A stretch of DNA of 64,000 bases from a virus (lineage: Duplodnaviria > Heunggongvirae > Uroviricota > Caudoviricetes). The notes under the pieces were generated by a model. That model was not told the DNA's origin and searched no databases. It saw only the letters and a list, made by a program, of their open reading frames with translations. This document shows positions 4,704-63,971 of the stretch, one piece after another; the first letter of the stretch is position 1; each line of letters begins with the position of its first letter. Position numbers and translations under genes: made by a program. The stretch lies in IMG/VR virus record IMGVR_UViG_3300021255_003438, positions 13,508-77,507 of that record, one strand, 5' to 3'.

Positions 4704-5927
4704 TTAACCAATCTGTTTAATCAGATAATTGCACTTCTCAGTATTTCCCAAGGTTTTACCCTTATCATTGGAAAGCTTAACGCAATCATGCCATTCACGG
4801 CTCTCTGTAAGCCTCATTCCAATCAATTTGATTACAATGTTGCTATAAGGAAATTTCTCTTTTGTTTCCATGTTGGCAACATCAGCGCAAAGATGTGTTC
4901 CAATGCCATAGGAGTCCTTCATACGTCCGCCAAGCCACTTGTGCAACTCAACAGCCTTGTCAATGGTAAGGGCGTTAGAATATACAATAGACTTGGTTGA
5001 TGGGTCAATACCAAGAGAACGATATTTCTCAATCATCTTCTCAGTTTCCTCATGCTCGTCACCACTGTCAATACGGATACCATCGAACATCTTAGCCATC
5101 TTTTTAGAGAAATTGGAAAGGAACACCTTTGAGCCAAAACAGTCAGGAAGGAATATGCCCAAGTCGCCGTCATACACGTCAGACCATTTCTTCATAACTT
5201 GATAATTGCACTCAAACACGCCACTTACGCACTCTTCGAATGAGCAAATCTGGTGTGACATCGTTCCTATCACTCCAAGGTCAAATTCCTTTGCAAACCA
5301 CACATTAGATGTTCCAACGAATTTTCCATTGTAATGAGGGGTTTTCTTAATCTCTATATCAGCATTTTTTAATGCGTTAATTACATTACGCTGAACGTCA
5401 AATGAAAAGCGTCTACGTGTTCCCATGTCAGAAAGCAGCAGTCCATTTGTAAATGCTTTAGCTCCTTTTGCATACGCTTCTCTGTATACGTCATCCATGT
5501 CAACCTTTTCAATGTCGCCTTTAAGTATATGCATCAACTCTGAAATGGTAGATAGAATTGGCATTTCCCACATAATTGTGGAATACCACTTACCCTCAAT
5601 CATAATTGAGAGATAGCCATCAAGGTCTTGGAAAATGTGAACCTCACTAGGATTGAAACGGAATCCACGAAGGAAATTGTAGTACCACTCTGGAAGGAAA
5701 TAAATCTTTTTCTTCATAAACTCAATCTCTTCTTCAGTGATAATTACATTGGCCATTCCGTTAATCTGCTCTTGTAGCATCTGACCAAATCCTTTTGGAT
5801 AGCGAGTATAGTTTCTGTCAAAGAACGAATACCTTACCTCTGCACGAGGATAAGTGTGTAAAATGTAATACTGACAAGTGTACGTATAGAGGTCGTTATC
5901 AGTAAAATGAGTTACAATTTGTTTCAT
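4704..5927 (-). CDS. pncB: Nicotinate phosphoribosyltransferase
   Basis: 407 aa. Has 'LLSDMGTRRRFS' and the overall NAPRTase layout and length. Confidence 0.8.
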   Translation of the reverse strand: MKQIVTHFTDNDLYTYTCQYYILHTYPRAEVRYSFFDRNYTRYPKGFGQMLQEQINGMANVIITEEEIEFMKKKIYFLPEWYYNFLRGFRFNPSEVHIFQDLDGYLSIMIEGKWYSTIMWEMPILSTISELMHILKGDIEKVDMDDVYREAYAKGAKAFTNGLLLSDMGTRRRFSFDVQRNVINALKNADIEIKKTPHYNGKFVGTSNVWFAKEFDLGVIGTMSHQICSFEECVSGVFECNYQVMKKWSDVYDGDLGIFLPDCFGSKVFLSNFSKKMAKMFDGIRIDSGDEHEETEKMIEKYRSLGIDPSTKSIVYSNALTIDKAVELHKWLGGRMKDSYGIGTHLCADVANMETKEKFPYSNIVIKLIGMRLTESREWHDCVKLSNDKGKTLGNTEKCNYLIKQIG

Positions 5928-13000: not shown

Positions 13001-13771
13001 TCAACCATTATTGATTGAACATTCAAATATTGTGACTAATGCATTTGGGTCTAGGTTCTTTATAAACCTATCATAAAACGTACTGACCCATTCAGTTTCA
13101 CTACCTTCAAAGGTATCTACGTCAACCCACCCATCTTTGTCAACAAAGGCATAGTTCCAATAAGAGGTGCTGTAGTTTACATACTCTTCTTCTGATTTGA
13201 ATTTACGGAAATATGCTTCTTTGTCTTTCATGGCGTTATAGATGGCCTCTTCTTCCGTATTTGAAGGTGTTTTACCTTCCATAACCATTTCCCAAGCAGC
13301 TTTATAGACACTTGCGTTTGTGTGTGTCATTGATTCCCAATCCACTTCACTTACATGAGCAGAATAGGCTTCCATACCATTTTTTAATAGCAATGGCATA
13401 GAGAAATTCCTTCCTACCCTACAAGTGTTGAAATGGGCATTAGGATTTTCAGTTGACAAGGCATCACCATCTTCATTGTAATACATTCCATCTGTAAGCT
13501 GTCTGTAATACTCGAATGAAGATTGTTTTTTAAGCTCTTCTAAGCGTGTTTTAAGCGTTTCTTGTGTGGTTGGTGGTATTCCTATCTTATCAGCTTCATC
13601 AAGCAACTTCTCAAGCGTTTTAATAGATGCTTGCTGATACTTCTTAGCCTCAAGATATTTGTACTTGACATATGGTTCGACTTCATAGTCTGCGCCATAT
13701 TTCTCCATCATTTTCTGTGGCTCTTCTCCTACGGCCATTACAGAAAAAAATCTACTATTCGTCTGTGCCAT
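13001..13771 (-). CDS. Hypothetical protein
   Basis: 256 aa ORF. Confidence 0.45.
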   Translation of the reverse strand: MAQTNSRFFSVMAVGEEPQKMMEKYGADYEVEPYVKYKYLEAKKYQQASIKTLEKLLDEADKIGIPPTTQETLKTRLEELKKQSSFEYYRQLTDGMYYNEDGDALSTENPNAHFNTCRVGRNFSMPLLLKNGMEAYSAHVSEVDWESMTHTNASVYKAAWEMVMEGKTPSNTEEEAIYNAMKDKEAYFRKFKSEEEYVNYSTSYWNYAFVDKDGWVDVDTFEGSETEWVSTFYDRFIKNLDPNALVTIFECSINNG

Positions 13772-34048: not shown

Positions 34049-34456
34049 CTAGTAATTCATACGTGAGGGTATAACACCTCTTACGCCACCTCTAGGGTTT
34101 TCAACGTCACCCTCATATCTAGGAATTATGTGTATGTGACAATGATGAATGGTTTGCCCAGCAACCTCTCCACAGTTAATACCAATATTATAACCTTGGG
34201 GATGGTATCTTTCGTCTAATATTTTTTTGGCATTCTCTATCGCATAATGCAATGACTCCTTTTGAGAATCTGATAAATCAAAATATGTTTCAACGTGTTC
34301 CTTTGGTATAATAAGTGTGTGACCTTTAGATACTGGATATTCATCTAATACGGCTTTCCATATAGTTCTGTCGAACAACACATTCTCTTCCTTTTGATTT
34401 TCACAAAAAACACACTTATCCATTGTTCTGCTGCCCATTCTCTCTAATGTGTTCAA
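34049..34456 (-). CDS. HIT-family (histidine triad) nucleotide hydrolase/transferase
   Basis: 135 aa. 'IHHCHIHIIPR' is the HxHxHxx motif. Confidence 0.75.
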   Translation of the reverse strand: MNTLERMGSRTMDKCVFCENQKEENVLFDRTIWKAVLDEYPVSKGHTLIIPKEHVETYFDLSDSQKESLHYAIENAKKILDERYHPQGYNIGINCGEVAGQTIHHCHIHIIPRYEGDVENPRGGVRGVIPSRMNY

Positions 34457-34934
34457 CTGCGCTCTTAAGTGCTACCGAAATGGCTTTTTCAATATTATTG
34501 CTTCTAGAAGAATCAGCTTCAATCTTTACATACTTGAAAGTGACTCTTCCATTTATTTTCTTGCACACACAAATCCATATTGTACCATTTTCACTGTCCT
34601 CATGGATAAATGCGTCACCAATAACACTAATACATACATCTACGTTAAACATATAAGACGCACATAATGCAGTTTTCATTGCCACTTGAGAACTGTATAA
34701 GCCATTCGCCTTTATAACATCTTCACCTATTCCCATCAACGTTTTAAGGGCATCGTCATTGAAATAGTTAAGAGTGCCCTTATATATTGTTGGAACGGCA
34801 CATACGCTTCCTATGGTTGCTCCAAGCAGTCCACAAGTACAATTTTCAACCGTTGCTATCGTTAGACCTCTGTTGAGGATTTCTAGGGCTAATTCTTTCA
34901 ATTCTTCACTCATCGAAATAAACGTTTTTGTCAA
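34416..34934 (-). CDS. pncC: CinA C-terminal domain protein (PncC-like NMN deamidase)
   Basis: 172 aa. 'TIATVENCTCGLLGATIGSV...YSSQVAMKTA...DVCISVIGDA...GTIWI' matches the CinA_C/PncC consensus (ESCTGGLLA...SNE.K...GAVS...MA.GA...ISVTGIAGP...GTV). Confidence 0.6.
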   Translation of the reverse strand: MTKTFISMSEELKELALEILNRGLTIATVENCTCGLLGATIGSVCAVPTIYKGTLNYFNDDALKTLMGIGEDVIKANGLYSSQVAMKTALCASYMFNVDVCISVIGDAFIHEDSENGTIWICVCKKINGRVTFKYVKIEADSSRSNNIEKAISVALKSAVEHIRENGQQNNG

Positions 34935-35286: not shown

Positions 35287-35398
35287 TCCATATATTTTTT
35301 TTTTATTAAACTTTTTGCAAATATATAAAAAAAAATTGGAAGATACAAATATATCTCCCAACTTTAATTTTGTTTAACAATTTGCCTATATGGATGTG

Positions 35399-35472
35399 TG
35401 AGCGTAGTGGGATTCGAACCCACGAACAACGGTTTTAGAGACCGCCCCAATAGACCACTCTAGCATACGCCC
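35399..35472 (-). tRNA. Candidate suppressor tRNA (anticodon CTA, would read UAG)
   Basis: Acceptor GGGCGTA/TACGCTC. T-arm GTGGG-TTCGAAT-CCCAC. Anticodon stem (G)CGGT/ACCG(T) with loop CTCTAAA (U33, CUA, A37). The D-arm is irregular. Own promoter at 35481-35511. Confidence 0.45.
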
Positions 35473-37520: not shown

Positions 37521-37686
37521 ATATTGTTAAGTTTTAGATTCACTTACCTAAAAAGATTGAGATTCTTGCAAGCTACATAGTAGTATCTCCTCATTTATGT
37601 CCAGCCCACCGATGAAGGCTTCTACTAGAACTGGTTACCTCCGATTCACACGTGCTTCGCTTTTCTACTATGTAAATCTCAATTTG

Positions 37687-37811
37687 CAGGGACTGATGGA
37701 CTCGAACCACCATTTTTCATTAACAGTTAAAGGCGTAATCTGTTCCGCAGTCGAGACTACGTTAATTCCTTAAATCGTAACAAACCACTCTTACCCTTGA
37801 GCTAAATCCCT
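37687..37811 (-). ncRNA. Long tRNA-like gene (~125 nt) with acceptor + D-arm + T-arm and ~50 extra nt
   Basis: Acceptor AGGGATT/AGTCCCT. D-arm GCTC-AAGGGTAA-GAGT. T-arm GGTGG-TTCGAGT-CCATC. Extra internal hairpins, including AACAG...CTGTT. Confidence 0.35.
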
Positions 37812-38612
37812 ATATAAATATACAAAAGACTGAGAATGTTGTCTTATGTTGATGCCGTCACACAACGGTTGGACGTTGCTCTTCACACGCTGCCTTACAG
37901 CAGACGTAGACACCATGCACGATGATTTTGCGAAAACCACCAAAAAACTTACTAGTTTAAACCTCTCGGTGCAGCATCATAGCTTTCAGTTCTTCGCCAA
38001 GCTCTTGCGGATTCATAGGATGCCTCCTATTAACTCAGGCGAGTACTTTTACACGCTCATTGAATTCCTTGCGAGTCCTCAATGTCTTCATATTGCAGAA
38101 GAATAAGTGCATTTTAGCTGCCTAGTGTCGCGCACTTTTGCTAATATAAAACCGTTTGAATCAACATTTCAAAATTTTATTGCCCATGACCTTGGAAGAC
38201 GAGGCGCGACCCATCGCATTCGTACCTTTTGAGTACGACCCACGAAATCGCCTTCCTACAAAGACTCACCACAAGTCCAATTGCTGTTATGCACTATCAG
38301 CCTTACGGTTCTCACGCCTTTCAGCGCAAGACTAGCGAATAACTAAACCCAACACGCCAACTGGTGATTATTGCATCGAGTTCAGCACAGTAATCTATTG
38401 TGTCACCACTCATCCAAAGACTCTTCGCCCTTGGAAACCTACACCTATGGTGTTACCCACGATGTAGACCGTACTATGCTCTTTTCAGTGAAATGCCTCA
38501 GTCAGCCAAGGCATCTGCAACGCTACTTGGTCAATTTCACGCCACATTTATCCTATCACTAGATTATCCTTAATGGCTACGAAAGCTAGCCAAAACCCCT
38601 TGCGAGATTCGT
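37800..38612 (-). ncRNA. GC-richer ~0.8 kb region with no ORFs: candidate large structured RNA or degenerate tRNA-like array
   Basis: No ORF over 90 codons on either strand. GC visibly higher than its flanks. Long-range complementarity (for example GGAAGACGAGGCG...CGCCTTCC, TTCGTAC...GTACGA). Embedded between tRNA genes on the transcribed strand. Confidence 0.3.
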
Positions 38613-38722
38613 TGGTAAGAAGAGATTTGCACTCTTGAAGCCTCCGAAGAGGCACATCAAGCACGAACTTGATGCCCATTTGTCTACATCAGTCTCTCGA
38701 CTGTTCTCCTCTGGTACTTACC
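38613..38722 (-). ncRNA. Long tRNA-like gene A (~110 nt), tandem paralog of 38760..38866
   Basis: Acceptor GGTAAGT/TCTTACC. T-arm AAGAG-TGCAAAT-CTCTT. Internal hairpins (GCATCAAG...CTTGATGTGC, GCCTC-TTCG-GAGGC). Conserved 5' blocks AGAGGAGAACA and GATGTAGACAAAT shared with its neighbour. Confidence 0.4.
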
Positions 38723-38759
38723 AAAAGGTGGTTTTTCAATTTGTCCACCACAAAATAGT

Positions 38760-38866
38760 TGGTAGAGCTAGATTTGCACTAGCGAAGCCACCTAAGTAGC
38801 ACAATACTTACCGTATTGCCGATTTGTCTACATCACCATCACTGGTGTTCTCCTCTCGTATCTACC
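38760..38866 (-). ncRNA. Long tRNA-like gene B (~107 nt), tandem paralog
   Basis: Acceptor GGTAGAT/CTCTACC. T-arm CTAG(A)-TGCAAAT-CTAG. Shares the 5' conserved blocks with gene A. Confidence 0.4.
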
Positions 38867-38875
38867 AAATGTAGT

Positions 38876-38954
38876 TGCGGAAGTGGGATTTGCACCCACG
38901 AACCTTACGGACTAGCTTATGAAACTAGCGAGATTGACTACTCCTCCATTCCGC
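38876..38954 (-). tRNA. tRNA (anticodon CAT) with an extended variable region
   Basis: Acceptor GCGGAAT/(C)TTCCGC. Anticodon stem CTAGT/GCTAG with loop TTCATAA. T-arm GTGGG-TGCAAAT-CCCAC. Confidence 0.5.
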
Positions 38955-39067
38955 TATGTTAAAAATAAGGAAACGTTTTTGTTTTTTCAAGAAACATTTA
39001 CATACTTAAGCTAGTTGCTGTGCGTTTCCACTATTCTATGAATTTTATTATCTTTTTTCCAACTGCG

Positions 39068-39099
39068 CAAAGATATAAAAAATATTTTTAATATCCAAA
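39068..39099 (-). promoter_or_regulatory. Bacteroidetes-type promoter upstream of the tRNA cluster unit
   Basis: caaagata at 39068-39075 and ccaaa at 39095-39099, spacer 19 nt. Confidence 0.55.
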
Positions 39100-43218: not shown

Positions 43219-43241
43219 AACAATAAAAATTAAATTAACAG

Positions 43242-43330
43242 CTCGCAGGGTGCGATTCGAACACACGGTAGGATTTTAAACCTACGGCAGTTTTGGAGAC
43301 TGCTGGGTTAAACCACTCCCCCACCTGCGA
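43242..43330 (-). tRNA. tRNA with a Trp anticodon (CCA) but a type-II-like long variable arm
   Basis: Acceptor TCGCAGG/CCTGCGA is perfect. Anticodon stem GCAGT/ACTGC with loop CTCCAAA. Variable hairpin GTAGG-TTTAAAAT-CCTAC. T-arm GTGTG-TTCGAAT-CGCAC. Confidence 0.5.
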
Positions 43331-48028: not shown

Positions 48029-48299
48029 AAAATAAAGGAATATACTAGCGAATCGTGTGTTGTATTTCACTCCACGTCTTTGACCACTACCATTTCATCA
48101 ATCCATTTCGTCTACCATACTTTCACATGTTTGGAATAATTAGATAATCAGTAATAACGACTATAGTCTCCTGAAGTTTGTCCATCTAATCCATGTTATT
48201 CATACAGCCTATTCTTTCATTTGTAATTTAATACAGATGATACTCTATGCATCACGAACTTACTGTTCTTCCGACCTTTATTCCTTTGTGGAGCTGAAG

Positions 48300-48372
48300 A
48301 GAATCGAACTCTCCCACGAACCTTGCAAAAGTCCATCGCCAGCCTTGGAACATGCAACCCCAAGCAATGCAC
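48300..48372 (-). ncRNA. tRNA-like element (acceptor with G3:U70, canonical T-arm, no clean anticodon stem)
   Basis: Acceptor GGGGTTG/CAGCTCC. T-arm GAGAG-TTCGATT-CTCTT. A palindromic TTTTGCAA sits where the anticodon arm should be. Confidence 0.3.
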
Positions 48373-48500: not shown

Positions 48501-49571
48501 CTATTTCTTGTCAAATATCACCCCATCTGGTAAATCATTGTCTACCACTTTCTTCTCCTTGTAGTAGTCCAAATAGGCATTTCCATCGTCATTGATGATG
48601 TATTCGATGCCTCTTGAATATTCATAGGTAGATGCAACACCTTGCAGCATAAAGAAGAAAAATCCATCCTTATCTACTAGTCGCAACCAATGGGAATCAT
48701 TTGTATTTTCCTCTTGTATGATTTTGTACTTGTCCGTTGCCTTTACCTTTTCTATGTATTTGTTGAAAGTTGGGGCAAACTTACCAGTTGCACAATCACC
48801 TCTGAAACGAACAGATTCAAACCCTATTTTCTTAGCCCATTCGACAAAATTCTCAACGAATGTAGGAAAGTTCTCAATTTCCTTATACACAACACTCACT
48901 GCTGATGTTGTTATGTTTCTGTCAAGAAGCTGTACTATCAAGCTAGTAAGCTCTTCGTCTGTCGGAATTCTCCAAGTGTTAAATATCTCTCTTCGTGCAT
49001 CTAAATTATAATGATGGATTGAAATATTTACATAGTTAACCACGCCAATTAATGAATCTAAAACTTCATTCAGCTTATATCCATTTGTGGTAAGGGTCAC
49101 TCTGTTAATTTTATCCAACCATTTAGAGTTTTTTAGCCTCCTTAACACTTTCCTTAACAAGTCTGGATTGAACGTTGGTTCATTTCCAGTTATGTCAAGA
49201 CTAATTGGCTGTTTGCCGTATACTCTATCAACCACATCGCCAAGAGAATCAATAAATCTGCTCAAGAATAAGTCATAGTCATGCTCCATGTTCTTATATC
49301 CGTTCATAAAACAAAACTCACACTTTGCTTGGCAGAAAGATGGGATTATCAACTTAATTGAAACCACATTCTCATAGTCAACTCTTACGTTGTAATTGTC
49401 AAGTACCCATAAATGCCATTTTGCAGCATTCACAACATTTTCATTCTCATGCTTTAGAAGAGATTCAACATAACCTCTGTCCAAGGTAAAATCCTTTTTC
49501 AGCTTATGGTATATGTCTGTCCATTTCTCCCTTTTGTGTTCTAAAATTGTCTTTTTGACATCTTTCCACAT
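48501..49571 (-). CDS. Radical SAM domain protein
   Basis: 356 aa. N-terminal 'CQAKCEFCF' is the CxxxCxxC motif. Confidence 0.6.
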   Translation of the reverse strand: MWKDVKKTILEHKREKWTDIYHKLKKDFTLDRGYVESLLKHENENVVNAAKWHLWVLDNYNVRVDYENVVSIKLIIPSFCQAKCEFCFMNGYKNMEHDYDLFLSRFIDSLGDVVDRVYGKQPISLDITGNEPTFNPDLLRKVLRRLKNSKWLDKINRVTLTTNGYKLNEVLDSLIGVVNYVNISIHHYNLDARREIFNTWRIPTDEELTSLIVQLLDRNITTSAVSVVYKEIENFPTFVENFVEWAKKIGFESVRFRGDCATGKFAPTFNKYIEKVKATDKYKIIQEENTNDSHWLRLVDKDGFFFFMLQGVASTYEYSRGIEYIINDDGNAYLDYYKEKKVVDNDLPDGVIFDKK

Positions 49572-49677: not shown

Positions 49678-49748
49678 TGTGGATGCAATAGGATTCGAAC
49701 CTATGTTTTTTTACCATTGTATATGGTCACTCCCCAGAGGAGTCCTTA
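49678..49748 (-). ncRNA. tRNA-like element (good acceptor/T-arm, aberrant D/anticodon region)
   Basis: Acceptor GGATGCG/TGCATCC. T-arm ATAGG-TTCGAAT-CCTAT. ACCA-TATACAA-TGGT hairpin. Confidence 0.35.
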
Positions 49749-49761
49749 CACGCATCCATAT

Positions 49762-52040: not shown

Positions 52041-52459
52041 ATAAAAAGGAAACGTAGGTTTTCGAGCTTGCTTATTCTGCTATTACTATGAGGGTGGTAT
52101 TTCAAGATTGACTCCACACATCCTAGCGAATATGCTTCAACGTCTCCCACCTATCCTACACTCATATGCCATTGCTACTGTTATTCACAAGAGTAACACG
52201 TTATGCAGCCCTAGCCTTATCTTTTGGAATTGTAACGAGTTAAGATTTCATATGCTGTACGTTTCCGATATATTGTGTCAATTGCGACAAAAGAAAAAAG
52301 GAACGACCAATTTTATGTCTTGGCTCGACATTCGCCCCGAAGAGCATAGGTAAGTGCCTCGCAATGATGATTTAACGCTTCTCTTACCTTCGTCTAGTCT
52401 GAATTAAAAATGTGTTCTTATAAATTTATTTTAATCAAACTGCTGTACGTTCCTACTTG

Positions 52460-54843: not shown

Positions 54844-54957
54844 AGCCGTGTGCTGGATTCGAACCAACGTTTGTACTTAAACACCCCTTGTGCATATGCT
54901 GGTACCTACTGGGGTCGCCTCGTTTGCGCTGTGCTGACCGTCTTACACTAACACGGC
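54844..54957 (-). ncRNA. Long tRNA-like gene (~114 nt) sharing the acceptor stem with tRNA-Thr(TGT)
   Basis: Acceptor GCCGTGT/ACACGGC. T-arm GTTGG-TTCGAAT-CCAGC. About 85 nt internal with GGTACC/GCATATGC palindromes. Confidence 0.35.
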
Positions 54958-58340: not shown

Positions 58341-58421
58341 GTCGGAAGGGTAGGATTCAAACCTACGAACTCTGCTATATCAACACGGCTAGTTTGCAGA
58401 ACTGCTGCCGTTTCCTTCCGA
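58341..58421 (-). ncRNA. tRNA-like gene (perfect acceptor TCGGAAG/CTTCCGA, T-arm GTAGG-TTTGAAT-CCTAC), internal arms unresolved
   Basis: 81 nt. GCAG-TT-CTGC hairpin inside. Confidence 0.35.
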
Positions 58422-58593: not shown

Positions 58594-58679
58594 TCGGAGG
58601 AGAGGGATTCGAACCCCCTGCGTATCTTACGTGCTAGATTTACAGTCTAGTGCCCATCCACCATCTGAGCAGCCCTCCG
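58594..58679 (-). tRNA. tRNA-Tyr (anticodon GTA), type II
   Basis: Acceptor CGGAGGG/TCCTCCG. D-arm GCTC-AGATGGTGGAT-GGGC. Anticodon stem CTAGA/TCTAG with loop CTGTAAA. Variable-arm hairpin CGTA-AGA-TACG. T-loop TTCGAAT. Confidence 0.65.
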
Positions 58680-59775: not shown

Positions 59776-59800
59776 TGTCAGCCAAGGTAGATTCGAACTA
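59776..59800 (-). ncRNA. Orphan T-arm/acceptor 3' fragment (GGTAG-TTCGAAT-CTACC + TTGGCTG)
   Basis: No complementary 5' strand found. Confidence 0.25.
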
Positions 59801-60101
59801 CCACCGTTATTTCTAACGCCATCAAGTCTTCCCAATTGCACTATAACTTGAAACCTCCTAGCCCAATGTAGGTGTGCTACCATTACTCCATTGACTGAAT
59901 TTGCTACATCGGTGGGATTCGAACCCAACGTAGAAACGAAAATGTTTCGACTCATATCTAACAAGGATGCACTTTTAAGGTCTTTGCTAGCAATTGACCT
60001 CCTAGTTTCATTGACTGTTTGTCTCATTTGTCCCAGATGTGGCATTAAGACTTGCAATTTTCTTAAAAATCCATATCCATTCCTCTGATACGATGCAGTT
60101 G

Positions 60102-61321: not shown

Positions 61322-62787
61322 AACATTTCAAATAATTTATAAAGTTCGTTTGTGTCATCATCGACTGCTGTTTTTCTCTTCTTTTTTACGCCACTGAGTT
61401 TACACATTGTGTCCAAGTCTTCTTTCATAATTGCAATAGAAGAGTTAAGAGACTTTACATAGTTGTTCAGAGAGTTGACCATCATGTCAACTGATGCCAC
61501 ACTACCATTGAAATTCATTCGTGGCAAAGAAGGAATTGTGGGCATTTTAATGTTGTAGTTTTTCATTCTGAAAACTGCTGCTTCTGCCCTTTTCCTTTGT
61601 TCTTTGATTCTTCTTTCCTCTGCTTCTATTCTTTTACGTTTTTCTTCCTCTTCTCTTCTAGCCCTTTCAGCAGCTTCTTTAGCTTTCCTTTCCTTTTCAG
61701 CTTCGTACTCTTCAATGGTAATTGCGCCTAGTTCATCCCAACTAATTGTGAAATATTCATTTGGGTTAACGCCATCGAAATAAGCTCTATCAACACCAAA
61801 ACATCTATCAATTGAGTCTTCTACACCTTTTTTCGTTAATTTGATTAGAATGTAAATAGTATCCTCAGATGATATAAAATTGCCATGATTGAACAGCATA
61901 CCTTTTGGATAAACAATTTGAATATCCAAATTTGTTTTATCTTTGGTGATATAACCGTTGCCATATACTAATGGTTCAATTGTCTGAATCCTTACACTCT
62001 TCTCAAACTGCTTTTCGGTAATAAGATGACCACTAGGAGTTAGGACATACCCATCAAAGTAATCCTTAAACCCATCAAGTCTTATAAGTATGTTCCTAAC
62101 GGTGTTATCAATGTCTGACAATGGAGTAGTACCTAAGTTGTTCTTATCAAATGGTATAATGTCTTTAACTCTTTTCCAAGCTAGTTTCTTAGGAAAAAGC
62201 TGCAAACCAGTCTGATATTCAATTCCAAGCTGTGCACAGTCATTTTTGGATAATGTAAATATTAATCCTTTTTCTCCACCCACTTGTTTTACGATGACAG
62301 AATCAACTTTAACTCCATGAAACTCATCAACCATACCAACAAGTTCATAGACTTTCTCTTCCATCTTAAACCCATCGCAAGCTACACCCCTTAAAGCATA
62401 CTTCTCACCTTCAATAAACTTAGGTATCATATGCTTTGGTTCATTTACCACGCTCATGTCGGTAAAGTCAACAGCTTCAAACAACTCTTTAGGCTGAGAA
62501 AATAGCTTCTCAACCTTTGGCGTGCTGCGTTTGCGAGGACAGCCTATAGCTTCCAAAGCAGCGTTGTTAATTTCGTCTACCACCTTAAAAACGGTGCTAT
62601 TACTATTCCACAAACTCATTATATTAGTATCTACTATATCAGTCAACGGAAAAACTATTCCATCATCTGTGCTTTTTAATAAAAGGTTATTACCTTGCGC
62701 ATCTGTTACTATCTTAACAACACCTAACCCACTAGGCAGTTTAGTCCTAGTGGGAGGTGGTATTCTAGATGGAGTTATTTTTGCCAT
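61318..62787 (-). CDS. Hypothetical protein with a charged coiled-coil segment
   Basis: 489 aa. 'EAEKERKAKEAAERARREEEEKRKRIEAEERRIKEQRKRAE'. Confidence 0.45.
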   Translation of the reverse strand: MAKITPSRIPPPTRTKLPSGLGVVKIVTDAQGNNLLLKSTDDGIVFPLTDIVDTNIMSLWNSNSTVFKVVDEINNAALEAIGCPRKRSTPKVEKLFSQPKELFEAVDFTDMSVVNEPKHMIPKFIEGEKYALRGVACDGFKMEEKVYELVGMVDEFHGVKVDSVIVKQVGGEKGLIFTLSKNDCAQLGIEYQTGLQLFPKKLAWKRVKDIIPFDKNNLGTTPLSDIDNTVRNILIRLDGFKDYFDGYVLTPSGHLITEKQFEKSVRIQTIEPLVYGNGYITKDKTNLDIQIVYPKGMLFNHGNFISSEDTIYILIKLTKKGVEDSIDRCFGVDRAYFDGVNPNEYFTISWDELGAITIEEYEAEKERKAKEAAERARREEEEKRKRIEAEERRIKEQRKRAEAAVFRMKNYNIKMPTIPSLPRMNFNGSVASVDMMVNSLNNYVKSLNSSIAIMKEDLDTMCKLSGVKKKRKTAVDDDTNELYKLFEML

Positions 62788-63971
62788 TACTTCTCAAGCA
62801 TTCTTATGCCATCATTTTGAAGCTCCTTGGCAATAACACGCTGTGTCGATTCAGCAACACCAAGTGCTGTCTGAGACATCTGCTTCTCCAACTTGGCAAT
62901 TTCAGCCTCGGCAGCAGCACGCTTCTGAGCACCCTCTTGCTGGGCTTTCTGCACGCCCTCAACCGTAGCCAACAAATCTGTCGTAGTCTTACGAAGCGTT
63001 TCAATGTCAATTACTGTACGCTGATTCTGCTTTGCAACCTCAATTGCTTGGGTCTTCATCATTTCAGAATTCTTTCTGAAGATTTCATTGGTTGCATTTG
63101 CAACCTTACTACTAACTTCAAGACTCTGCTTCTGATTATACAAAGCCACTGCAAGTGAAAGCTGATTCTTCCAAAGAGGAATTGTCATGGCAATCTGAGA
63201 CTCTGTATTGTTGGCATCCATAATATTGGTGCGCTGAATAATGCGAATCTGCGTGAGAGACTGCTTAAACGCATAGCGAAGCATTGTAAGGTCTGTGAGA
63301 CGCTTATCCAAAGAATTTTTGTACTCTTCGATGTCGCTAATCTGATAGTCCTCATACTCGCCAACCCTAGACTTCATGTCTTCAATCAGTGTTCCAAGCT
63401 CATCGGACTTAATCTTACCTGCAATGATAAGGTCTTCAAGTTGGTCTACATAATCACAGTTGTTTTCAAACTGCTTCTGCAAAAGGTTGTTGTCACGAAT
63501 TGCAATCTGACGAGTGGCCTCAAGCTTATTGACAATACCATCAATGTTCTTCTGAATGGTGTTGTACTTGGCTTTAATCTGCTCAACAGATACCACAAGT
63601 TTGCGCAGCATAGGAATCTTACGCAAAAACCTCTTCATCTTACTAGGTGCTTCAAGGTCATCAATGTTGACCTCATGCAGTTCACCCAAAAGATTGGAAA
63701 TAAGCTCTGCTGATTCGATGCTTGTACGAGAGTCCATCTGCTGAGACAAAAAGTCATTGGAATAGGTGTCCATAGCCCTCTGTAGGTCAGAGCCATAGCT
63801 AGAGATACTTGTCAAGTCCTTTTCGTCAAGAACCTTTGCAATTTCAGCATAATAAGCTTTCTTTTGAGCTGGCAAGTTTTCCGTGTTAATCGTGCCATCA
63901 TCAGATACTCTCTTCTGAGGCAGATTTCCACTAATGTTCTCGCCATTAAGCTCTGCTTCTGCTTCTTCCAC
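62787..63971 (-). CDS. TelA-like (toxic anion resistance family) protein
   Basis: 394 aa. Mostly helical/coiled-coil. Length and sequence character fit the TelA/KlaB family. The start lies close to the window end. Confidence 0.4.
   Translation of the reverse strand: MEEAEAELNGENISGNLPQKRVSDDGTINTENLPAQKKAYYAEIAKVLDEKDLTSISSYGSDLQRAMDTYSNDFLSQQMDSRTSIESAELISNLLGELHEVNIDDLEAPSKMKRFLRKIPMLRKLVVSVEQIKAKYNTIQKNIDGIVNKLEATRQIAIRDNNLLQKQFENNCDYVDQLEDLIIAGKIKSDELGTLIEDMKSRVGEYEDYQISDIEEYKNSLDKRLTDLTMLRYAFKQSLTQIRIIQRTNIMDANNTESQIAMTIPLWKNQLSLAVALYNQKQSLEVSSKVANATNEIFRKNSEMMKTQAIEVAKQNQRTVIDIETLRKTTTDLLATVEGVQKAQQEGAQKRAAAEAEIAKLEKQMSQTALGVAESTQRVIAKELQNDGIRMLEK

Follow-up and report, generated by a model that had tools for sequence, protein, structure and literature searches.

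A stretch of 64,000 nucleotides (nt) of Caudoviricetes DNA, positions 13,508 to 77,507 of IMG/VR virus record IMGVR_UViG_3300021255_003438 and hereafter the window, carries within its array of transfer RNA (tRNA) genes a tandem pair of long tRNA-like genes, which we call copy A and copy B. We consider it very likely that they are paralogues belonging to a phage RNA family that arose from class-II tRNA-Tyr. The pair had been placed at 38613-38866 by an earlier reading of the sequence (the original prediction); it is real, and the refined ends add only two to three terminal bases:

38868 to 38758, minus strand: copy A, 111 nt including U(-1) and C74, tRNA-Tyr-like with a hairpin insert in the D-loop
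38724 to 38611, minus strand: copy B, 114 nt, anticodon arm replaced by an 8-bp stem with the 6-nt loop UUCGUG

The strand is that of all 32 tRNAs called by ARAGORN in the window and of its transfer-messenger RNA (tmRNA). Both copies start with UUG and end with CAAC, and each has the perfect 7-bp acceptor stem (U1-A72, G2-C71 and five covarying pairs) and the T-arm (5 bp, loop UGCAAAU) that the original prediction had described. The blocks which it saw in common between the copies are indeed particular to them, with exactly two occurrences each in the window: AGAGGAGAACA and GATGTAGACAAAT are confined to A and B, and AGAGGAGAACA and GAUGUAGACAAAU are present in both copies and in no other place. 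Minimum free energy (MFE) z-scores against shuffled sequences are -3.2 for A and -3.0 for B, the MFE of copy A being -35 kcal/mol, and copy B is identical in sequence to a homologue at L007:4916-4803 (loci are given by L numbers throughout). The R1 covariance model scores 117.2 bits on A (E 1.9e-33) and 132.6 bits on B (E 4.2e-38), while the next match in the window, with filters off, reaches 34.5 bits; A and B are the only members here.

Known families do not accommodate the pair. The Rfam comparison proposed with the original prediction (tRNA, tRNA-Sec, Y RNA and tmRNA) returned nothing for A or B, with no match to these or to any other Rfam 15 family at E ≤ 10 in a scan of 37600-39000, and ARAGORN calls neither copy even with introns allowed. 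Both fall below the gathering score of the tRNA model RF00005 (29 bits), and neither has a 7-nt anticodon loop with U33 on a 5-bp stem, A carrying G33 and B the 8-bp stem with UUCGUG. Nor do they belong to the GOLLD model RF02032, whose match at 38256 to 37827 they lie outside, as neighbours only.

Homologous loci were seeded with the exact pattern GAGGAGAAC-N8-20-GATGTAGACAAAT. This pattern is found in 27 IMG/VR loci (50 copies, often two to five in tandem with a period of 115-117 nt) and in at least 120 metagenome contigs, and in none of the genomes of 185,579 bacterial and archaeal species, one genome each. Among INPHARED phages no close relatives were found, the matches being only tRNA and endonuclease fragments. 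Across all fetched loci nhmmer recovered 244 full-length copies, most of 110-118 nt; the 168 unique sequences among them carry many acceptor types. Family members score 92-137 bits with R1 and the next class 30-38 bits. The covariation analysis with homologues that the original prediction had called for gave a strong signal. In 41 unique copies (RNAalifold and pair counts) 97.8% of cells are paired and 24 of 34 pairs have changed on both sides, with a covariation score of 0.593 compared with ~0.08 when the partners were slid. The 134 distinct model-aligned sequences raise this to 98.6% of cells paired, 26 of 34 pairs with double changes, 1125 compensatory cells and a score of 0.658, against ~0.09 in slid controls. 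The proposal of a novel tRNA-derived small RNA class therefore holds for the tandem pair, which escapes Rfam and ARAGORN and belongs to a large covarying family with a tRNA core. We found no description of this A/B family in the literature searched, and it is absent from Rfam 15.

The fold of the A/B family, a five-way junction, is that of a class-II tRNA. Ordinary tRNAs of the window align with R1 over its full length at 15-35 bits, the D-arm falling on P2, the anticodon arm on P3 and the variable arm on P4, and the cloverleaf core is borne out by alignment, by covariation, by this global model alignment to real tRNAs and by the end pattern. From the 5' end the layout is U(-1), U1 G2 N3-7, U8 A9, the D-stem C10 S11 A12 and A14 G15 G16 A17, followed by the insert (GAAC, a 4-5-bp hairpin that is mostly GNRA-capped, and GAUGU) and then A18 G19 ACAA A21, with AG in place of G18G19. 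The 3' part runs through G26.U44, the anticodon stem, the variable-arm hairpin, UUC48, the T-arm with its loop U54 G55 C56 A A58 A U, positions 66-72, A73 and C74. The D-stem has 3+1 bp, the G15-C48 tertiary pair is kept, and G13.A22 switches to A13.C22 in six unique copies, both changes always occurring together. The insert measures 27-33 nt and lies between GAGGAGAAC and GAUGUAGAC, which are invariant in these pattern-seeded loci; its tetraloop is mostly GNRA, with exceptions. All stems covary, while hardly any change is seen in the insert flanks and the UUCGUG loop, both of which are under strong purifying selection. The extra internal nucleotides, which the original prediction saw as additional hairpins, are made up of one D-loop hairpin, a lengthened and closed anticodon arm and an ordinary class-II variable arm.

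The ends U(-1), A73 and C74 are common to the family and the tRNA genes of the array. Among 33 window tRNAs U(-1) is found in 28, C after the discriminator in 32, and CAA rather than CCA there in 23, and this uniformity of flanks implies shared processing. It also bears on the helix lengths: a tRNA-Sec-like 8/5 acceptor/T helix was considered for A and B and rejected, the eighth pair being U(-1):A73 in an array where nearly all tRNAs have U(-1) and C74, so that the helix is the ordinary 7/5. Two further candidates were discarded. Covariation of T-loop G55 with the A of GUAGAC, suggested by L008 (UUCAAAU with GUGGAC), is contradicted by L148 (UUCAAAU with GUAGAC), and by eye the insert flanks do not fit a K-turn or a bulge-helix-bulge. 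Two members, at L095 2276-2475 (minus strand, 200 nt) and L010 2442-2576 (minus strand, 135 nt), have a much larger insertion in the D-loop hairpin, which marks this hairpin as an expansion site.

Loss of the anticodon is graded across the family. In ~123 of the 168 unique copies (~73%) an 8-bp stem is capped by an essentially invariant UUCGUG, as in copy B. Another ~31 (~18%) have Y-G-G-U-A-A-R, and copy A, with C32 G33 G34 U35 A36 A37 G38, has kept GUA, changed U33 to G and made positions 32 and 38 pairable. The remaining type, a 5-bp stem with the canonical or near-canonical loop CUGUAAA, occurs in ~7 copies (~4%; L040:3615-3505 and L080:9041-9151 are examples) and is the anticodon loop of tRNA-Tyr(GUA). 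A usable anticodon loop has been lost in ~95% of copies, and most members consequently cannot decode.

Several lines of evidence connect these RNAs with tRNA-Tyr. When the insert was deleted in silico, ARAGORN called 21 unique copies, A included, as tRNA-Tyr(gta), and it called none with the insert kept. An insert-free 84-nt phage tRNA-Tyr, at L195:97-14, has the D-loop AGUAGACAAA, the T-loop UGCAAAU and the UUC linker of the family, and a family member from which GAGAAC...GAUG is removed has exactly this D-loop. The same D-loop and T-loop strings are found in four bacterial tRNA-Tyr genes, which lie in ordinary Thr-Tyr clusters, mostly in Patescibacteria metagenome-assembled genomes. Since ordinary phage and bacterial tRNA-Tyr carry UGCAAAU, the idea that a UGC T-loop marks non-ribosomal tRNAs is weakened. 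A scan for members with a canonical Tyr anticodon gave 49 loci, 48 of them at chance level and one a true insert-free tRNA-Tyr. The family resembles this class-II tRNA-Tyr(GUA) variant in its acceptor stem, D-stem, variable-arm hairpin, UUC linker, T-arm and core tertiary bases, and is identical to it in the 3' half of the D-loop and in the T-loop. It differs in the D-loop hairpin, the closed or replaced anticodon loop and the pairs U1-A72 and G2-C71, and in going unrecognized by ARAGORN and the Rfam tRNA model. These likenesses speak of ancestry, not of function, and the anticodon part of the resemblance is missing from copy B. The phage has a standard tRNA-Tyr besides, at 58679 to 58593.

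The surroundings of the pair include a large structured RNA, beginning where copy B ends:

40735 to 40376, minus strand: tmRNA, a separate gene
38610 to 37827, minus strand: divergent GOLLD-type RNA, ~784 nt, with a 5' domain (38610 to 38257) and an Rfam-modelled part (38256 to 37827)
37811 to 37687, minus strand: D-type long tRNA-like gene, 125 nt; Rfam tRNA 35.3 bits, the anticodon arm being replaced by 68 nt

With 73.2 bits (E 1.1e-18) the match to RF02032 stays under the model's gathering score of 150. The Rfam model does not cover the interval between the last family copy and the modelled part of GOLLD, which is conserved and visibly covarying (33 unique sequences) and which amounts, with the first modelled hairpin, to ~420 nt. 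This length matches the 5' domain of the solved env-38 GOLLD, residues 1-420 (PMC12286853), and the GOLLD of the window should accordingly extend from about 38610 to 37827. In six loci Rfam gave the order tmRNA, tRNA(CAU), family array, ~350-640 nt, GOLLD-like RNA and a tRNA-like gene of 121-126 nt, and some homologues have an ordinary tRNA (Asn, Ser or Leu) in the GOLLD linker. Arrays of two to five family copies lie between the tmRNA and the GOLLD-type RNA, the last copy abutting the GOLLD 5' domain. Searched with a hidden Markov model of the GOLLD-like part, the loci yielded 42 instances, and a family copy lies 354-646 nt upstream on the same strand in 42 of 42. A family-independent GOLLD pattern found 12 IMG/VR loci, of which 11 had already been retrieved as family loci; in the remaining one, L148, a divergent copy stands where it was expected. 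Earlier work had placed GOLLD within tRNA arrays, where it follows a tRNA-Met and in some cases has tRNAs embedded in it (PMC12286853; PMC12990946). The conserved block of tmRNA, tRNA(CAU), array, GOLLD and long tRNA-like gene was absent from the original prediction.

Family copies also occur in other settings. They are found ~60 nt upstream of the tmRNA in L003, L009 and L027, and the loci that lack GOLLD mostly hold solitary copies behind a gene for a 121-aa protein, with no Rfam family nearby. At least once, a solitary locus and an array-plus-GOLLD locus (L001 and L017) are on one contig. At L001 an uncalled tRNA-like unit of ~80 nt lies 3' of the solitary copy (5440-5520, minus strand; acceptor UGAUAGG/CCUAUCA, T-loop UUCGAUU, a 7-nt loop CAUCUAA without U33), with a terminator-like hairpin after it, and ~140 nt upstream of the family copy there is a promoter-like TAnnTTTG element.

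Between tmRNA and GOLLD the block contains three further elements:

38754 to 38725, minus strand: leader H-type pseudoknot, 30 nt between A and B, immediately 5' of B
38874-38955, minus strand: tRNA(CAU), 82 nt, with a long variable arm, a 1:72 mismatch, T-loop UGCAAAU and D-loop GAGUAGUCAAU
39099 to 39068, minus strand: Bacteroidota-type promoter-like element, TTTG-N20-TATCTTTG, read from sequence, upstream of tRNA(CAU), A, B, GOLLD and D

The pseudoknot has the form NUUG-Y-GGUGG-A-CAAN'-(N3-6)AAAAA-CCACC-UU, with an A-rich loop, ends 2 nt before the 5' end of the tRNA-like gene and precedes 99 of 243 family copies. In its 29 unique sequences all cells pair and one pair in each helix shows compensatory changes; the sequences were gathered with a restrictive pattern, and their invariance is partly by construction. 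Its topology resembles that of small pseudoknot riboswitches or of a 3'-end cap. A preQ1-type riboswitch was considered for its similar topology and set aside, with no Rfam match even on 56 nt.

The tRNA(CAU), which lies 6 nt upstream of A, is the nearest relative of the family in the window and has the same type of T-loop and D-loop. ARAGORN calls it tRNA-Met, it scores 44.2 bits with the Rfam tRNA model and 34.5 bits with R1 when aligned globally, and it is conserved in 9 loci. Long class-II-type variable arms on tRNAs with anticodons other than Ser, Leu and Tyr are found here and at 43241-43330 (minus strand) in the window, and in L003, L008, L009, L025 and other loci. Such tRNAs include Met/CAU (82-86 nt, with the 1:72 mismatch and a Tyr-type D-loop and T-loop), Trp/CCA (87-90 nt), Lys/CUU (83-85 nt), Thr/UGU (83-85 nt) and an amber suppressor, CUA (85-92 nt); an altered charging identity is a possibility for them.

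A TAnnTTTG match on the minus strand lies at 39068-39075, within the promoter-like element. Since this motif is not enriched across the window (94 found, 89 expected), we treat the element as a lead only. We infer a Bacteroidota host and a rumen-type sample origin only from the promoter form and the accession series. No intrinsic terminators were detected inside the block.

The original prediction grouped two further loci, 37687-37811 and 54844-54957, with the pair. Both are real tRNA-like genes, but with R1 scores of 6.9 and 10.6 bits they do not belong with A and B, and the three are different families. The first of them, D, is placed outside the A/B family on its R1 score and, unlike A and B, passes the gathering score of RF00005. 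Its acceptor stem, D-arm and T-arm are canonical, and a conserved branched hairpin of ~50 nt replaces the anticodon loop. D starts 15 nt after the 3' end of GOLLD, homologues are found 12-16 nt after GOLLD in at least 16 loci, and RNAalifold detects covariation in 14 of 24 pairs. The other locus is the following:

54957 to 54844, minus strand: C-type tRNA-like gene, 114 nt, with a perfect 7-bp acceptor stem, D-arm, canonical T-arm (UUCGAAU) and three extra predicted internal hairpins

This gene fails the RF00005 threshold and has no Rfam match at E ≤ 10. Two related phage contigs, L153 and L155, have nearly the same sequence here between flanks that have diverged, and the gene is thus a conserved one. 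A search for homologues by D-arm/T-arm pattern found none, and a 17-mer scan gave 7 loci, of which these two were aligned and are genuine homologues. The acceptor stem and T-arm are shared with a long-variable-arm tRNA-Thr(UGU) in L050. The intron-mode calls of ARAGORN on C and D (Cys(gca) and Pro(cgg), introns at 33/34) are forced and non-canonical, and we do not trust them.

Several further tRNA-like genes of the array are degenerate or repurposed. They include acceptor-plus-T-arm minihelices of 120, 81, 78 and 73 nt, called by neither ARAGORN nor Rfam, at 59778-59897, 58341-58421, 49680-49757 and 48289-48361, all on the minus strand. An isolated stretch of 80 nt in the middle of the array (52087-52166, minus strand; GGAUAGGUGGGAGAC...CUUGAAAUACCACCCU) matches bacterial 23S rRNA over positions 2131-2210, in the L1-stalk region, with 63 bits (gathering score 50); it may mimic the site of the L1 protein or the stalk that binds the tRNA elbow. 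At 35398-35472 (minus strand) lies a suppressor tRNA with anticodon CUA, labelled 'Pyl' by ARAGORN; it has counterparts in related loci, and these tRNAs suggest that TAG is reassigned in these phages. Protein genes amid the array, all on the minus strand, include a radical-SAM/4Fe-4S gene (possibly QueE-like), a CinA-family gene and a TelA-family gene, at 48501-49571, 34416-34934 and 62787-63971, as well as several HNH endonucleases.

The explanation that we favour, and which we regard as on balance probable, is that a family derived from tRNA-Tyr is released as tRNAs are and serves in trans as a non-decoding mimic. A single precursor RNA, started at the upstream Bacteroidota-type promoter, would span the block. 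Each tRNA-like unit would be cut out of it by RNase P, for which U(-1) is a favoured base, together with the tRNA 3'-end machinery, and the same cuts would set both ends of GOLLD in the manner of MALAT1/mascRNA. As to placement, B ends where the GOLLD 5' domain starts and D begins 12-16 nt past the GOLLD end. The released RNAs would be L-shaped and CCA-completed, with an extra hairpin at the elbow and no part in decoding, and could act in trans as tRNA-Tyr mimics by titrating or occupying a factor that recognizes the body of tRNA-Tyr. Candidates for this factor are a host tRNA-targeting defence nuclease or a tRNA-Tyr enzyme, the tandem copies providing dosage. Phage tRNA-Tyr has been found to counter a retron effector that degrades tRNA-Tyr (PMC11555353). 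That the units of the A/B family are processed as tRNAs we regard as likely, whereas their role as a trans mimic or decoy is put forward tentatively, as plausible but short of probable. A trans role is favoured because the best-conserved parts are irrelevant to RNase P and because the copies are amplified.

Several observations weigh against the favoured explanation. A decoy for an anticodon nuclease should keep the anticodon loop, and most copies are without one. Any ordinary tRNA could punctuate GOLLD, so punctuation alone would leave the specialized body unexplained. The link with GOLLD is not obligatory, since GOLLD is missing from 60 of the 96 loci whose downstream flank measures 900 nt or more. 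Among the neighbour genes of family loci there is no nuclease, aminoacyl-tRNA synthetase, Ro or ligase candidate, only HNH/NUMOD4 endonucleases and the 121-aa protein. It should also be noted that the invariance of the two motif blocks is partly by construction, owing to the exact-pattern seeding, and 16 variants found by the model alone show which changes are permitted.

Among the alternatives, the units may act in cis only, as punctuation that recruits RNase P and RNase Z to define the ends of GOLLD, the tmRNA and their neighbours, the released pieces being by-products. The position of a family copy against the GOLLD 5' domain and of a D-type gene at its 3' end fits this, as do the copies just upstream of the tmRNA and the U(-1), A73, C74 pattern of real tRNAs. 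The pseudoknot with its A-rich loop falls exactly at the predicted RNase P site and could, by analogy with the MALAT1 triple helix, cap the 3' end of the upstream RNA. However, RNase P needs only the acceptor and T domains, yet the insert flanks, UUCGUG and the core tertiary bases are the most conserved parts; up to five adjacent copies are superfluous for punctuating one RNA, and solitary copies exist with no large RNA nearby. We hold an exclusively cis function to be unlikely. A partnership with GOLLD seems less likely still. Here the RNAs would be stoichiometric cofactors, cargo or gate elements of the nanocage, docked through the GNRA hairpin or the invariant loops, or left covalently attached at the GOLLD 5' end. 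The strict co-location of GOLLD-like RNAs with the family, the multiple copies and the mostly GNRA-capped insert hairpin are in keeping with this, and the cages have been proposed to enclose or display tRNAs (PMC12286853; PMC12990946). Kissing between family and GOLLD loops was tried and rejected: no complement of UUCGUG (CACGAA) is conserved in GOLLD, and although 27 of 27 GOLLD-like RNAs contain GUCUAC, which is complementary to the invariant GUAGAC, it lies inside a modelled helix of a conserved block. As it was also one of ~10 motifs tried, its conservation is probably a coincidence. The many GOLLD-free loci, and a tetraloop that is not always GNRA, also count against a partnership.

The copies might instead be working tRNA-Tyr genes, in which the D-loop hairpin is tolerated or is excised as a new mini-intron. 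In favour of this are the tRNA-Tyr calls after insert removal, the few copies with a CUGUAAA-type loop and the exact insert-free D-loop that excision of GAGAAC...GAUG recreates. Nevertheless, most copies carry UUCGUG on an 8-bp stem or G33 with a closable 32-38 pair, and the phage already has its standard tRNA-Tyr. A mini-intron, which the original prediction had offered as one option, is disfavoured: once the insert is removed, a tRNA can be called in only 24 of the 168 unique copies, and the bases flanking the insert are the best conserved, the opposite of what is expected of an intron interior. The insert lies in the D-loop, GAGAAC/GAUG forms no 3-4-3 bulge-helix-bulge at its boundaries by eye, and no Rfam intron family, group I included, matches 37600-39000 at E ≤ 10. 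Thirty nucleotides are also too short for self-splicing. Decoding tRNA-Tyr genes are very improbable in our view. The last alternative, that the copies are functionless, decaying tRNA pseudogenes, is strongly disfavoured and can hardly be correct. It could appeal to the lost anticodon loop and to the many other degenerate tRNA-like elements of the same array, but it would have to account for the near-complete pairing and compensatory changes across 134 distinct sequences, for invariant loops and for conserved synteny over hundreds of copies, which are not a few recent clones but 168 unique sequences with many acceptor types.

In a more far-reaching reading, huge rumen phages might carry a three-part RNA module working as one system, composed of anticodon-less tRNA-Tyr mimics, the GOLLD nanocage and the second long tRNA-like RNA. 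The mimics would be partners or cargo of the cage, or else a dosage-amplified decoy against a tRNA-Tyr-directed immune nuclease, and the tRNA shape would also cut the cage RNA from its precursor. We think this module improbable as a whole; if true, it would identify the first functional partner of GOLLD. To our knowledge neither a function nor a partner of GOLLD has become known since 2009, even though the structure of its cage is now solved. Two dedicated non-decoding tRNA-like families bracket a GOLLD subfamily at all loci that were examined, and the association of GOLLD with tRNAs thereby becomes testable through the action of RNase P and RNase Z in processing, joint assembly with the cage and effects of array dosage. 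A hairpin in the D-loop with the core intact is an unreported tRNA architecture. As its members range from apparently decodable tRNA-Tyr to anticodon-less mimics, the family forms a natural series for the repurposing of a tRNA, and it is relevant to phage-host conflict over tRNA-Tyr. Being invisible to ARAGORN and Rfam, these genes have probably been missed in hundreds of contigs by annotation that relies on such tools.

Small stable RNAs are known from other phages. The 'species 1 and 2' RNAs of T4 (rnaC and rnaD), of ~120-140 nt and without known function, are encoded and matured among the phage tRNA genes. Compared by description only, they resemble the family as small stable RNAs amid phage tRNA genes, but the T4 RNAs are single-copy and have neither a GOLLD/tmRNA context nor a demonstrated tRNA-Tyr ancestry. 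In eukaryotes, RNase P cleavage at the tRNA-like unit mascRNA makes the end of the large RNA MALAT1. There and in the MEN-beta 3' elements a non-decoding tRNA-like unit likewise abuts a large structured non-coding RNA, with an A-rich element at the cleavage site, which in our case is a predicted one. The setting here differs in being phage or bacterial, with tRNA-like units at both ends of the large RNA and with arrays and solitary copies. The tRNAs already known to be coupled with GOLLD, namely tRNA-Met upstream of the env-38 GOLLD and tRNA-Phe in J13/15 in Mycolicibacterium, are also tRNA-shaped units in tRNA arrays (PMC12286853; PMC12990946); they are ordinary decoding tRNAs, whereas the flanking units described here are two dedicated non-decoding families. 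The tRNA-like domain of tmRNA and YrlA also use a tRNA-like acceptor, T-arm and D-loop for non-decoding purposes (PMC4201824). In YrlA the RNA ends form a Ro-binding stem, not an acceptor stem as in the family, and no Ro gene was seen here. Mimics derived from tRNA are therefore an already known kind, represented by the tRNA-like domain of tmRNA, YrlA, mascRNA and the T4 stable RNAs; the D-loop-insert architecture, the graded loss of the anticodon and the fixed coupling to GOLLD, with a second tRNA-like family at its other end, are new.

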